Source: Escherichia coli (GTDB lineage Bacteria; Pseudomonadota; Gammaproteobacteria; Enterobacterales; Enterobacteriaceae). Taken from it: a stretch of DNA of 31,035 bases. How positions within the stretch are numbered: position 1 is the first letter of the stretch; every line of letters starts with the position of its first letter. A program made the position numbers and the translations under genes. Of this stretch, positions 18,495 through 26,823 are shown piece after piece. The stretch is from NCBI RefSeq assembly GCF_003334255.1, contig NZ_QOWU01000060.1; one strand, given 5' to 3'. Below the pieces are notes generated by a model. It was not told the DNA's origin and searched no databases. It was given only the letters and a program-made list of their open reading frames with translations.

Positions 18495-21400
18495 TTACTC
18501 GTTATCAGAACCGCCCAGACCTGCGTTCAGCAGTTCTGCCAGGCTGGCAGATGCGTCTTCTGCAGTCACCTGCGGTGCAGCCGGAGCTTCACCCGCAGCA
18601 CGGCGACGCATACGATCCTGGTGGTACGCGTAACCGGTACCTGCCGGGATCAGACGACCCACGATAACGTTCTCTTTCAGGCCGCGCAGTTCGTCGCGTT
18701 TGCCCGCAACGGCTGCTTCGGTCAGCACGCGAGTGGTCTCCTGGAACGATGCCGCGGAGATGAAGGACTCGGTTGCCAGAGACGCTTTGGTGATACCCAG
18801 CAGATCGCGGGAGTAAGTTGCACCCACTTTGCCGTTCGCTTCCAGTTCGCGGTTTGCGATCTTGACGCGAGAGTATTCAACCTGTTCGCCTTCCAGGAAG
18901 TCGGAGCTACCCGCGTTAACGATGGTAGCTTTACGCAGCATCTGACGAACGATAACTTCGATGTGTTTATCGTTAATCTTAACGCCCTGCAGACGGTATA
19001 CGTCCTGTACTTCGTTAACGATGTAACGAGTAACAGCATGAACACCACGCAGACGCAGAATGTCGTGCGGCGCTTCCGGACCGTCGGAAATTACGTCACC
19101 ACGTTCTACACGTTCACCTTCGAACACGTTGAGCTGACGCCATTTCGGAATCATCTCTTCGTACGGATCGCTACCGTCTACCGGGGTGATAACCAGACGA
19201 CGTTTACCTTTGGTTTCTTTACCGAAGGAAACGATACCGCTGATTTCAGCCAGGATTGCCGGCTCTTTCGGACGACGTGCTTCGAACAGGTCCGCAACGC
19301 GCGGCAGACCACCGGTGATGTCCTTGGTACCGCCGGATTCCTGCGGAATACGCGCCAGGGTGTCACCAGAGCTGATCTGTACGCCATCTTCCAGCTGAAC
19401 AATCGCTTTACCCGGCAGGAAGTACTGCGCTGGCATATCGGTACCTGGGATCAGAACGTCGTTACCCTGAGCATCAACGATTTTCAGTGCCGGACGCAGA
19501 TCTTTACCACCTGCGGTACGTTCTGCGGAATCCAGAACCACCAGCGAAGACAGACCGGTCAGTTCGTCGGTCTGACGCGTAATGGTCTGGCCGTCGATCA
19601 TGTCAGTAAAGCGTACAAAACCGCTTACTTCGGTGATAACCGGCATGGTGTGCGGGTCCCAGTTTGCAACGGTTTCGCCGCCAGCAACCTGTTCGCCATC
19701 GCCTTTCGCCAGTACCGCACCGTAAGGTACTTTGTAGCTTTCTTTAGTACGACCGAATTCGTCGATCAGTTTCAGTTCAGTATTACGGGAAGTGATAACC
19801 AGTTTACCGCTGGAGTTCACAACCGACTTCACGTTGCTGAGCTTGATGCTACCTTTGTTTTTCACTTGGATGCTGGATTCAGCAGCCGCACGAGATGCCG
19901 CACCACCGATGTGGAACGTACGCATGGTCAGCTGTGTACCCGGTTCACCGATGGACTGTGCCGCGATAACACCGATTGCTTCACCCTTGTTGATGATGTG
20001 GCCACGCGCCAGGTCACGACCGTAGCAGTGCGCACATACACCAAAGTCGGTGTCACAAGATACAACAGAACGTACTTTAACCGCGTCGACAGAGTTCTCT
20101 TCCAGCAGGTCACACCACTGTTCGTGCAGCAGCGTGTTGCGCGGAACGAGGATATCAGCAGTACCCGGCTTCAGAACGTCTTCAGCAGTTACACGACCCA
20201 GTACGCGATCGCGCAGCGGCTCTTTAACGTCACCACCCTCGATAACCGGAGTCATCATGATACCTTCATGGGTACCACAATCGTCTTCGGTAACCACCAG
20301 GTCCTGCGCCACGTCAACCAGACGACGAGTCAGGTAACCGGAGTTCGCAGTTTTCAGTGCGGTATCCGCCAGACCTTTACGAGCACCGTGGGTGGAGATG
20401 AAGTACTGGAGTACGTTCAGACCTTCACGGAAGTTCGCGGTGATTGGCGTTTCGATGATGGAGCCATCCGGCTTCGCCATCAGACCACGCATACCAGCAA
20501 GCTGACGAATCTGTGCCGCAGAACCACGCGCACCGGAGTCGGCCATCATGTAGATGCTGTTGAAGGAAACCTGCTTCTCTTCCTGACCGTCACGGTTAAT
20601 CACGGTTTCAGTTTGCAGGTTATCCATCATCGCTTTGGATACACGATCGTTCGCCGCAGCCCAGATATCGATAACTTTGTTGTAGCGTTCGCCCGCAGTT
20701 ACCAGACCAGACTGGAACTGCTCCTGAATTTCAGCAACTTCTGCTTCTGCCTCGGAGATGATTTCGTGTTTCTTCTCCGGGATGACCATGTCATCGATAC
20801 CAACAGATGCACCAGAACGCGCTGCATAGGCGAAGCCGGTGTACATGATCTGGTCCGCAAAAATAACGGTCGGTTTCAGACCGAGAATGCGGTAGCAGGT
20901 GTTCAGCATTTTGGAGATTGCTTTTTTACCCAGCGCCTGGTTGACGATGGAGTAAGGCAGACCTTTCGGTACAATCATCCACAGAATGGCACGGCCAACA
21001 GTCGTGTCTTTCAGGCTGGTTTTCGCTACTAATTCACCGTTAGCATCTTTTTCATACTCGGTGATACGCACTTTAACGCGCGCATGCAGAGAAGCCAGAC
21101 CAGAGCGATACAGACGTTCTGCTTCTTTCGGGCCAGTCAGCACCATGCCTTCGCCTTTGGCGTTAACACAGTCACGGGTCATGTAGTACAGACCCAGTAC
21201 AACGTCCTGAGACGGAACGATGATTGGTTCGCCGTTCGCCGGGGACAGGATGTTGTTGGTAGACATCATCAGCGCACGCGCTTCCAGCTGGGCTTCCAGC
21301 GTCAGCGGTACGTGAACAGCCATCTGGTCACCATCGAAGTCGGCGTTATATGCCGCACAAACCAGCGGGTGCAGCTGGATAGCTTTACCTTCGATCAGTA

Positions 21401-22718
21401 CCGGTTCAAATGCCTGGATACCCAGACGGTGCAGAGTCGGTGCACGGTTCAGCAGTACCGGGTGTTCGCGGATAACTTCGTCCAGGATATCCCAAACGAC
21501 AGCTTCTTCGCGCTCAACCATTTTCTTCGCAGCTTTAATGGTGGTAGCAAGACCACGCAGTTCCAGCTTGCCGTAGATGAACGGTTTGAACAGCTCCAGT
21601 GCCATTTTCTTCGGCAGACCGCACTGATGCAGACGCAGGTATGGACCTACGGTGATTACAGAACGACCGGAGTAGTCAACACGCTTACCGAGCAGGTTCT
21701 GACGGAAACGACCCTGTTTACCTTTGATCATGTCGGCCAAAGATTTCAGAGGACGCTTGTTAGAACCGGTGATCGCACGACCGCGACGACCGTTATCCAG
21801 CAGGGCGTCTACCGCTTCCTGCAGCATACGTTTTTCGTTACGTACGATGATGTCCGGCGCAGCCAGATCCAGCAGACGTTTCAGACGGTTGTTACGGTTA
21901 ATGACGCGACGATACAGATCGTTCAGGTCAGAAGTCGCGAAACGACCACCATCCAGCGGAACCAGCGGACGCAGATCTGGCGGCAGTACCGGCAGAACGG
22001 TCAGGATCATCCACTCTGGTTTGTTACCAGACTGAACGAACGCTTCCAGCAGTTTGATACGCTTGGTCAGCTTTTTACGCTTGGTTTCGGAGTTGGTTTC
22101 GTTCAGCTCTTCACGCAGCTGTTCGCACTCTTGCTCCAGATCCATGCTCTTCAGCAGAGCCTGGATTGCTTCCGCCCCCATCTTCGCGTCGAATTCGTCA
22201 CCGAACTCTTCCAGCGCGTCCAGATACTGCTCTTCAGTCAGGATCTGCTGACGTTCCAGGTTGGTCATACCGCCTTCGATAACCACATAGGATTCAAAGT
22301 ACAGTACGCGTTCGATATCGCGCAGCGGCATATCGAGCAGCAGACCGATACGGGACGGCAGCGATTTCAGGAACCAGATGTGCGCAGTCGGGGAAGCCAG
22401 TTCGATGTGGCCCATACGCTCACGGCGTACTTTAGTCTGGGTCACTTCAACGCCGCACTTCTCACAGATGACGCCACGGTGTTTCAGGCGCTTGTACTTA
22501 CCGCACAGGCACTCGTAATCTTTTACCGGCCCAAAGATACGGGCGCAGAAAAGGCCGTCACGTTCTGGTTTGAACGTACGGTAGTTGATGGTTTCCGGCT
22601 TTTTAACTTCACCGAAAGACCATGAACGGATCATGTCTGGCGAAGCCAGAGCAATTTTGATCGCATCAAACTCTTCGGTTTTAGTCTGCGCTTTCAGAAA
22701 CTTTAATAAATCTTTCAC
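18495..22718 (-). CDS. rpoC: DNA-directed RNA polymerase subunit beta'
   Basis: 1407-aa [43 protein letters not shown]..., zinc-binding Cys clusters, NADFDGD catalytic motif. Confidence 0.99.
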
Positions 22719-25700: not shown

Positions 25701-26823
25701 GCTCGCCAGGGCGCATCATGCGGTAGATTTCTACCAGTGCGCTCAGACGGTCGTTAGTTGGGTCGACACGTAAGGTTTCAGAGATATATGGGCCGTGATC
25801 CAGATCGTTGGTGAACAGCGTTTCGATACGCTTGTGACCAGACTGGCTCAGCTTAGCCAGCAGATCCAGGCTCAGCTCCATGTTCGCTGCGCAGATCAGC
25901 TCGCCGGTAGACTCATCAATATAGTCTTTAGCAACCACTTTACCTGCGATGTACTCAACCGGGACTTCGATCAGTTTGACGTCGTCTTTTTCCAGCTGGC
26001 GAATGTGGCGCGCAGTGATACGGCGGCCTTTTTCTACGTACACTTTACCGTTAGCTTCGATGTCAAAAGATGCGGTTTCACCACGCAGGCGTTCCGGCAC
26101 CAGTTCCATCTGCAGCTTGTTATCACGGATTTCAAAGATAACTTTTTCAAAGAACAGGTCGAGGATCTGCTCTGTGGTGTAGTTCAGGGCGCGCAGAATG
26201 ATGGTCGCAGGCAGTTTACGGCGACGGTCGATACGTACGAACAGGTTGTCCTTCGGATCGAATTCGAAGTCCAGCCAGGAACCACGGTAAGGGATGATAC
26301 GCGCGTTATACAGCACTTTACCCGAAGAGTGGGTTTTACCTTTGTCGGAGTCAAAGAAGACGCCCGGACTACGGTGCAGCTGGGAAACGATAACACGCTC
26401 AGTACCGTTGATAACAAAGGTACCGTTGTCTGTCATGAGCGGAATTTCGCCCATGTAGACTTCTTGTTCTTTAATGTCTTTTACGGTGCCTTCCGGCGCT
26501 TCGCGCTCATAGATCACCAGACGCAGTTTAACGCGCAGCGGTGCGGAATAGGTCACGCCACGGATTTGACATTCCTGGACGTCAAACACCGGTTCGCCAA
26601 GGCGGTAGCTGACGTATTGCAGCTCGGAATTACCGCTGTAGCTCTGAATCGGGAATACGGAACGGAAAGCAGCTTCCAGACCATACTGCCCTTCAGGATC
26701 TTGCTCGATAAATTTCTGAAACGAGTCAAGCTGGATAGAAAGGAGATAAGGTACATCCAGAACTTGTGGACGTTTACCAAAATCCTTACGAATACGTTTT
26801 TTCTCGGTATAGGAGTAAACCAT
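22795..26823 (-). CDS. rpoB: DNA-directed RNA polymerase subunit beta
   Basis: 1342-aa product [35 protein letters not shown]...; ATG at 26823 preceded by GAGGA. The track ORF is extended 11 codons upstream from a non-ATG start. Confidence 0.99.

Follow-up and report, generated by a model that had tools for sequence, protein, structure and literature searches.

Long non-stop frames in frame –1 that arise from biased codon usage have been described by Mir et al. (2012 PLoS One, PMC3454372), and the mechanism appears earlier in Merino et al. (1994 NAR 22:1903) and Silke (1997 Gene 194:143), as both are cited by Mir et al. A 2019 preprint (bioRxiv 10.1101/724807) gives rpoB, dnaK and dnaA as examples. 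Working genome-wide, Mir et al. also argued that some long alternative-frame ORFs exceed the expectation from codon usage. The AntiFam resource (Eberhardt et al. 2012, PMC3308159) deals with shadow ORFs and spurious proteins, whose apparent conservation comes only from the sense gene. Finally, antisense overlapping genes have been proposed in EHEC (pop, laoB and others) and in Pseudomonas (olg1/olg2), and these cases are reported to rest on Ribo-seq or RNA-seq, promoter/terminator elements, phenotypes and purifying selection (PMC7103648, PMC5810103, PMC8850804).

We analyzed a 31,035-nt stretch of E. coli DNA (the window), which covers the purH–thi–rpoBC–rplKAJL region. Gene coordinates follow the RefSeq entry for a strain with 100% identity over positions 18000–27000. 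The genes for RNA polymerase beta' (rpoC, 18495..22718) and beta (rpoB, 22795..26823) both lie on the minus strand and translate without internal stops; among 5,426 E. coli genomes, 5,421 have both genes annotated. Four long ORFs, each beginning with ATG or GTG, run opposite them on the plus strand, almost wholly within their host genes. Taken together, the evidence below indicates that these antisense frames are almost certainly unread shadow ORFs, the passive result of codon usage in the sense genes.

The longest, of 962 aa (22885..25773), ends at a TAA opposite rpoB codon 351 (25771..25773, minus strand), a TTA that is the only TTA, CTA or TCA among the 201 Leu and Ser codons of rpoB and is found in 0 of 10 aligned relatives. 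A second rpoB ORF of 367 aa (25795..26898) covers the 5' part of the gene and extends 75 nt beyond its start into the rplL–rpoB spacer. Opposite rpoC, an 803-aa ORF (18621..21032) ends at a TAA facing TTA563 (21030..21032, minus strand), which divides it from a 513-aa ORF (21084..22625) that ends at a TGA facing TCA32 (22623..22625, minus strand), a codon common to 5 of 9 species. Codons 4 and 5 of rpoC, TTA TTA (22704..22709, minus strand), give two further antisense TAA triplets, and TTA4 is common to 8 of 9 species. Antisense stops in this phase can fall only opposite sense TTA, CTA or TCA, as had been claimed, and the five such codons of rpoB and rpoC sit exactly at ORF boundaries.

All four ORFs are codon-aligned with the sense gene, their starts being offset by 126, 2589, 90 and 3000 nt, all multiples of 3. 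The original prediction had quoted eight antisense starts as codon-phased, and every one of them is indeed a multiple of 3 from the phase of the gene it overlaps. In addition to those in rpoB and rpoC, the aligned antisense ORFs include one of 528 aa in purH (665..2251, minus strand; purH has 1 TTA in 529 codons), one of 282 aa in zraR (3564..4412, plus strand), a gene with a low codon-bias score, one of 256 aa in thiC (12509..13279, minus strand), one of 141 aa in hemE (9669..10094, plus strand) and one of 168 aa over rplL (27017..27523, plus strand). Two more were absent from the earlier list: a 288-aa ORF in purD (2446..3312, minus strand) and a 437-aa ORF across rplA and rplK (28362..29675, plus strand), which share a phase and contain no TTA, CTA or TCA at all.

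It had been proposed that every long antisense ORF is aligned in this way. Above about 160 aa this is true: the 10 longest antisense ORFs of the window (168–962 aa) are all codon-aligned, as are 9 of 9 with at least 200 aa (P = 5e-5 under equal phase odds). The fraction is 12/14 at a cutoff of at least 150 aa and only 16/26 at 100 aa or more, and hence we limit the claim to ORFs above about 160 aa. Non-aligned ORFs of similar length, which were to count against the proposal, do exist; one of 156 aa in purD (2097..2567, minus strand) and one of 151 aa in nfi (8825..9280, plus strand) are both longer than the aligned ORF in hemE. Their number fits chance, as the stop densities of the non-aligned frames predict ~2.4 open runs of at least 150 codons and 2 were found.

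Stop counts by frame show the same asymmetry. Across the 27 window genes, the aligned antisense frame contains 12.2 stops per 1000 codons, compared to 33.5–55.1 for the other four non-coding frames. The aligned frame contains a single stop over the 1,343 codons of rpoB and 4 over the 1,408 of rpoC, compared with 33–91 in each of the other non-coding frames of these genes.

For the antisense frame in register with the sense codons (frame –1) to be closed, a TTA, CTA or TCA must stand on the sense strand, and two layers make these codons scarce. First, the base periodicity of coding sequence yields few codons of the type pyrimidine-pyrimidine-A, so that this frame is already the most open at the composition of E. 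coli. Second, in genes that E. coli expresses strongly, translational selection removes nearly all rare codons, TTA, CTA and TCA included, and Leu is encoded almost entirely by CTG. Because rpoB and rpoC are very long as well as strongly biased, and only 1 and 4 stop-making codons are left in them, open stretches of 350–990 codons result. Codon adaptation through tRNA abundance, of the type described by Ikemura and by Sharp and Li, is well established, and tRNA-mediated selection for efficient or accurate translation is probably the agent here as well.

The depletion is evident at the level of synonymous choice. TTA, CTA and TCA account for 5 of the 411 Leu and Ser codons in rpoB plus rpoC (1/201 and 4/210, respectively), so that the avoidance of these codons that had been asserted is borne out by the counts for each gene. 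We then compared counts in rpoB plus rpoC with the expectation from usage in low-expression genes, including as controls rare codons that make no antisense stop. The stop-making codons fall well short of expectation (CTA, 0 observed versus 12.4 expected; TCA, 1 versus 15.9; TTA, 4 versus 32.6), and the controls do likewise (GGA, 0 versus 26.6; CGG, 0 versus 21.3; CCC, 0 versus 15.3; ATA, 0 versus 11.5; CGA, 1 versus 15.1). Rare codons irrelevant to the antisense frame are therefore avoided in these genes as strongly as those that would close it.

A codon-bias score built from non-Leu/Ser codons only predicts the combined fraction of TTA, CTA and TCA, both in the window (rho –0.76, p = 5e-6) and in K-12 (rho –0.55). 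This fraction in rpoB plus rpoC (5/411) is statistically indistinguishable from that in other high-bias E. coli genes (9/345; Fisher p = 0.18), and the scarcity of stops is accounted for by the general codon bias of the two genes, with no extra depletion. We also considered whether rpoB might be 'too open', as a logit model built from mid-bias genes predicted 9.5 stop-making codons versus the 1 observed (P = 0.001). We rejected this idea; for high-bias genes as a whole the model predicts too many such codons (16.4 predicted versus 9 observed), and hence the excess reflects a calibration problem and carries no signal.

Could base composition alone, through GC content or RNY periodicity and without expression-linked codon selection, hold the frame open? 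Among 79 Gammaproteobacteria, the number of aligned-frame stops in rpoB ranges from 0 to 127, and GC3 explains most of the variance (rho –0.93, and –0.94 for rpoC); in genomes with GC3 > 0.75 the frame is almost always open, with a mean of 3 stops. Between genomes, the openness of the aligned frame is dominated by GC3, and the signal is that of GC3 rather than of expression. Within E. coli as well, aligned-frame stop density follows GC3 (rho –0.29), and position-specific base frequencies give 21–22 stop-makers per 1000 codons for rpoB and rpoC, versus 24–68 per 1000 in their other frames. However, the observed values are far lower still (0.7 per 1000 for rpoB and 2.8 for rpoC; equal synonymous use would give 41). 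The rpoB gene of E. coli is the strongest outlier beneath the GC3 trend, with 1 stop versus 18.9 predicted (–5.3 SD), which points to codon selection over composition; in genomes whose GC3 differs from its own by no more than 0.06, the median is 16 stops (range 2–38). Moreover, GC3 is uncorrelated with expression within E. coli (rho –0.03), whereas stop density does correlate with expression when GC3 is controlled (partial rho –0.50). Composition is thus a real contributing layer that is insufficient alone, and we regard it as very unlikely to be the whole explanation.

The original prediction had gone further, treating the length of the antisense frames as an intrinsic indicator of expression level. 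We assessed this using measured synthesis rates for 114 K-12 genes other than those of the window. Stop density in the aligned frame does track these rates (rho –0.48, p = 6e-8), with an AUC of 0.81 for the top expression class, and the shifted antisense frames show essentially no relationship (rho –0.07 and –0.03). By contrast, ORF length is a poor guide (rho 0.28) and is confounded with the length of the gene itself (rho 0.60); open frames of 200–320 codons are also seen in the poorly expressed genes araA, araB, caiB, caiT and zraR. The claim was therefore overstated and holds only weakly. An ordinary codon-bias score outperforms stop density (rho 0.60, AUC 0.90), and antisense openness as a proxy for expression amounts to a diluted, three-codon form of the usual codon-bias indices, confounded within a genome by how long a gene is and, from one genome to another, by GC3.

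Variation within E. coli offers a view of how the antisense translations evolve. Of the 176 codons that vary in rpoB and rpoC among eight strains, 174 differ only synonymously for the sense protein, and 159 of these 174 alter the antisense translation. This fraction (0.914) lies within the neutral expectation (0.90–0.92), giving no sign of purifying selection on an antisense protein among the eight strains; within the species, the antisense translations evolve as neutral sequence. Premature stops are introduced by three CTG>CTA polymorphisms of natural isolates: one at 26212 in strain EC67 truncates the 367-aa rpoB ORF, and the 513-aa rpoC ORF is truncated at 22155 in 2 strains and at 21873 in 1 strain. 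New antisense stops are nonetheless rarer than a flat mutation model would predict (3/174, or 1.7%, versus 6.3–7.6%; P about 0.002–0.006). Selection against CTA, TTA and TCA as rare codons explains this under-representation, although selection on the antisense frame would, on this result alone, also be compatible with it.

Nor is the open frame retained in relatives. Other Enterobacterales carry 6–40 aligned-frame stops at differing positions, and in AT-rich relatives the frame is closed about 100 times. Relatives do not share the positions of these stops, and conservation of the open frame beyond the constraint of the sense gene is absent.

Searches of the antisense translations against NCBIfam and Pfam matched no family (best Pfam E = 0.27). 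Consensus scans, which are a weak test for an own promoter and ribosome-binding site, detected 0 sigma-70-like sites on the plus strand between 18300 and 27200 (2 promoter-like sites on the minus strand; shuffles average 5.9 for the two strands together), and none of the four antisense starts has an SD-like core within 25 nt. Our literature search found no paper reporting transcription, translation or a phenotype for the rpoB/rpoC antisense frames, and neither gene is mentioned in the main text of an E. coli Ribo-seq survey of overlapping genes. These data suggest that the frames are not translated.

Two readings would nevertheless grant the antisense strand some role. One is that a short sub-segment is occasionally transcribed and translated at a low level, that highly expressed, codon-optimised genes serve as a reservoir of long stop-free antisense sequence for new proteins, and that the scarcity of new stops (1.7% versus 6–7.6%) stems partly from antisense selection; we consider this highly improbable. 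The other, that at least one of the frames is a genuine overlapping gene kept open by selection, has in its favor the great length of the ORFs (367–962 aa), their ATG or GTG starts, the shortage of new stops, occasional calls as hypothetical proteins by gene callers and the case made by Mir 2012 and Zehentner 2020 for function in some antisense ORFs, but with a neutral replacement fraction, equally depleted control codons, premature stops in three natural isolates or lineages and the frame closed at non-conserved sites in relatives, a full-length conserved antisense protein is already largely refuted, and the idea as a whole is exceedingly improbable. The preferred reading, codon bias rather than overlapping genes, was the core of the original prediction and withstood every test applied here, from synonymous-level depletion to the lack of conservation.

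How, then, do these frames compare with known systems? Like the EHEC and Pseudomonas cases, they are long ORFs nested antisense within annotated genes. Unlike those cases, they lack conservation and purifying selection when tested, and no promoter or SD signals were seen. They resemble the shadow ORFs of AntiFam in lying opposite a real gene and in sometimes being called hypothetical proteins; public databases contain the rpoB/rpoC antisense ORFs under the labels 'uncharacterised' or 'hypothetical' protein. Opposite rpoB, rpoC, ribosomal-protein genes and other biased genes, long frame –1 ORFs recurrently give rise to false gene calls, and length alone is insufficient ground for naming such ORFs candidate overlapping genes. 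Relative to the published frame –1 non-stop frames, nothing essential differs here; the frame is the same, the codons (TTA, CTA and TCA) are the same, and the attribution to codon bias in highly expressed genes is the same too. The mechanism has already been published, with rpoB named, and because these frames are a known by-product of avoiding TTA, CTA and TCA, the finding is real but ordinary. What our analysis adds for this locus is the set of controls with rare codons that make no stop, the polymorphism data, and the scaling with GC3 across 79 species.

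Between positions 18000 and 27000 the window matches many E. coli chromosomes at 100% identity, and this segment was found in 5,421 of 5,426 complete genomes. Gene coordinates were taken from the RefSeq annotation of one strain identical to the window; the gene order is purH, purD, zraR, zraS, zraP, yjaH, hupA, yjaG, nfi, hemE, nudC, rsd, thiCEFSGH, yjaZ, rpoC, rpoB, rplL, rplJ, rplA, rplK, nusG, secE, with rpoC (18495–22718) and rpoB (22795–26823) both on the minus strand. The rplL gene (27143–27508) measures 366 nt here versus 369 nt as annotated in strain 300709, implying an apparent in-frame 3-nt polymorphism in L7/L12. 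Rfam matches correspond to a TPP riboswitch upstream of thiC (11788–11888, +), sroH between thiH and yjaZ (17581–17741, +) and the P26 sRNA family in the rplL–rpoB spacer (27077–27138, −), the last overlapping a strong terminator-like hairpin (27103–27078, −). The rpoC stop is closely followed by a GC-rich hairpin of 10 perfect base pairs with A-run and T-run flanks (18450–18473), which looks like a putative bidirectional intrinsic terminator.

We sorted each non-annotated ORF in the window by strand and by its phase with respect to the overlapped gene, terming an antisense frame aligned when it shares the sense codon boundaries. The frames quoted in the original prediction were all present, including four opposite rpoB and rpoC (all +; 22885–25773, 962 aa; 25795–26898, 367 aa; 18621–21032, 803 aa; 21084–22625, 513 aa). 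Its statement that every long antisense ORF is aligned holds for all nine of at least 200 aa (P = 5e-5 if phases are equally likely) and for the tenth longest (168 aa, rplL), but not below, as the aligned share drops to 12 of 14 once the limit is lowered to 150 aa and to 16 of 26 with a limit of 100 aa. Non-aligned antisense ORFs of similar length, named there as grounds for refutation, number two (2097–2567, 156 aa; 8825–9280, 151 aa), both longer than its hemE example; given their stop densities, these frames should by chance contain ∼2.4 open runs of 150 codons, so the two ORFs need no explanation. Two aligned ORFs had gone unlisted: one of 437 aa across rplA and rplK (28362–29675, +), genes in the same phase, 3 nt apart and with zero TTA, CTA or TCA codons, and one of 288 aa in purD. 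Stops in the aligned antisense frame number 1 for rpoB and 4 for rpoC, whereas the remaining four non-coding frames have 33–91 apiece; across all 27 genes, the densities are 12.2 versus 33.5–55.1 per 1000 codons. The pattern is real and highly non-random.

The proposed mechanism, in which aligned stops arise only opposite TTA, CTA and TCA and codon bias makes these scarce, is correct: the ORF boundaries in rpoB and rpoC are exactly five such codons, namely TTA351 of rpoB (25771–25773) and TTA4 and TTA5 (22704–22709), TCA32 (22623–22625) and TTA563 (21030–21032) of rpoC. Leu and Ser codons are plentiful (127 and 74 in rpoB, 139 and 71 in rpoC), so the few stops are not due to amino-acid composition. 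Observed densities are 0.7 (rpoB) and 2.8 (rpoC) per 1000 codons, versus 21–22 from position-specific base frequencies alone and 41 under equal synonymous usage, so depletion has two layers. Ordinary coding periodicity gives the aligned frame slightly fewer stops than the other frames have, and codon-level choice imposes a further 8- to 30-fold loss. Of the four rare codons in rpoC that make stops, three (TTA-TTA at 4–5, TCA32) fall within its first 32 codons; these early rare codons are common to other Enterobacterales and Vibrio, with TTA4 in 8 of 9 species aligned. The 5' end of rpoC looks like a stretch of conserved rare or AU-rich codons in an otherwise highly optimised gene.

A bias score that leaves out Leu and Ser codons, and for which K-12 genes of high and of low expression served as training sets, predicts the fraction of Leu and Ser codons that are TTA, CTA or TCA, both in the window (rho = −0.76, p = 5e-6, n = 27) and among the genes of K-12 (rho = −0.55). 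A logit fit predicts 9.5 stop-making codons for rpoB, versus 1 observed; however, rpoB cannot be called too open on this basis, since its predictions are too high for all high-bias genes (9 observed versus 16.4 predicted). Stop-making codons make up 5 of 411 Leu and Ser codons in rpoB plus rpoC and 9 of 345 in the pooled high-bias genes, no difference (Fisher p = 0.18). The decisive control is that, in rpoB plus rpoC, rare codons unable to make an aligned stop are avoided at least as strongly as those that can. Relative to usage in low-expression genes, GGA (0 observed, 26.6 expected), CGG (0, 21.3), CCC (0, 15.3), ATA (0, 11.5), AGA (0, 5.5) and CGA (1, 15.1) compare with CTA (0, 12.4), TCA (1, 15.9) and TTA (4, 32.6). 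Selection on the antisense frame is therefore not needed, and the claim that these frames report codon bias rather than overlapping genes is upheld. Against their own bias scores, zraR (3423–4748) has 5 stop-making codons versus 12.6 predicted (P = 0.009) and purH (536–2125) 1 versus 5.1 (P = 0.03), neither significant after correction for 27 genes; the zraR deficit means that a regulator gene with little codon bias carries long aligned frames too.

Comparison across species argues against the rpoB and rpoC antisense frames being real genes. Scanning one genome per species yielded 80 gammaproteobacterial rpoB loci, and we extracted 79 rpoB and 72 rpoC genes, those of the window included. Aligned stops range from 0 to 127 (rpoB) and 0 to 144 (rpoC) and track GC3 (rho = −0.93 and −0.94); AT-rich genomes carry ∼100, exceeding one shifted antisense frame. 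Among other Enterobacterales (Pantoea, Pectobacterium, Acerihabitans, Photorhabdus, Budvicia), rpoB has 6–40 aligned stops at positions scattered across the span of the 962-aa ORF, and TTA351 is confined to E. coli among the aligned relatives. Composition does not account for the extreme openness in E. coli, whose rpoB is the strongest outlier under the GC3 trend (1 stop versus 18.9 predicted, −5.3 SD, rank 1 of 79; the median is 16, range 2–38, for genomes whose GC3 lies within 0.06 of that of E. coli), indicating codon selection.

Variation within E. coli also argues against real genes. Eight alleles (98.9–99.8% identity) contain 176 distinct variant codons, 174 of them synonymous for RpoB/RpoC, and the RpoB accession is identical in all eight strains. 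The antisense translation is altered by 159 of these 174 (0.914), matching the neutral expectation over all possible sense-synonymous mutations (0.90–0.92). Three independent CTG>CTA polymorphisms, at 22155 (two strains), 21873 and 26212, truncate antisense ORFs in natural isolates. New antisense stops are rarer among polymorphisms (1.7%) than under a flat mutation model (6.3–7.6%), as selection against rare codons predicts; alone, this does not discriminate between the readings.

The antisense translations matched no NCBIfam or Pfam family. By weak consensus tests, there was no sigma-70-like site on the + strand of 18300–27200 and no Shine-Dalgarno-like core within 25 nt of the four starts. 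A large protein collection does hold exact translations of three of the four ORFs (22885–25770, 25795–26895 and 21084–22622, +), in clusters of 243 and 95 members that include 'Uncharacterised protein [Shigella sonnei]' (SIY30250.1) and 'hypothetical protein [E. coli]' (GDV01322.1). Such ORFs are thus occasionally mis-called, and as shadow ORFs they contaminate the databases. One cluster holds both the 962-aa and the 367-aa products, which suggests that the intervening TTA351 stop is missing in some strains.

The original prediction also took antisense ORF length as an indicator of expression. For 114 K-12 genes other than those of the window (b0002–b0132, ≥100 codons), with synthesis rates of Li et al. 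2014 taken from a table in Price et al. 2016 (PMC5053530), aligned stop density falls with log synthesis rate (rho = −0.48, p = 6e-8), while shifted antisense frames show no correlation (−0.07, −0.03). Mean aligned stops per 1000 codons are 28.0, 25.6, 22.0 and 11.0 for <30, 30–300, 300–3000 and >3000 copies per generation, so only the top class stands out. Within one genome the idea therefore stands qualitatively for stop density; the longest open run, by contrast, relates weakly to expression (rho = 0.28; 0.24 normalised by gene length) and strongly to gene length (0.60). For the top class, the AUC is 0.81 for stop density, 0.76 for run length and 0.90 for the ordinary bias score. Poorly expressed araA, araB, caiB and caiT have open runs of 200–320 codons, and zraR has a 282-aa ORF in spite of its low bias score. 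As an indicator, it amounts to a standard codon-bias index diluted to three codons, and what it mostly reflects between genomes is GC3. Stop density in the same-strand +3 frame (91 stops in rpoB, 87 in rpoC) shows the opposite trend, increasing with expression across the 114 genes (rho = +0.36); a codon-pair side effect (NNT then GAN/AAN) is the probable cause, and the trend resembles the 'hidden stop' idea.

A targeted literature search found no reports of antisense translation at rpoB or rpoC, and an E. coli survey that used Ribo-seq to look for embedded antisense genes mentions neither gene in its main text. K-12 RefSeq does annotate mbiA (b0012; 10830–11315, +, in the K-12 sequence L002) antisense within yaaW (10643–11356, −); its offset of 187 nt places it out of the aligned phase, unlike the rpoB/rpoC shadow ORFs. 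The phenomenon itself is already described, rpoB included, making these ORFs a useful annotation caveat rather than a discovery. Long ORFs in this frame (frame −1) were described by Merino et al., according to Mir et al. 2012 (PMC3454372); a preprint (10.1101/724807) writes out the TTA/CTA/TCA rule and attributes antiparallel ORFs opposite 'dnaA, dnaK, rpoB, etc.' to codon optimisation; and shadow ORFs form one of the classes of spurious protein covered by AntiFam (PMC3308159).
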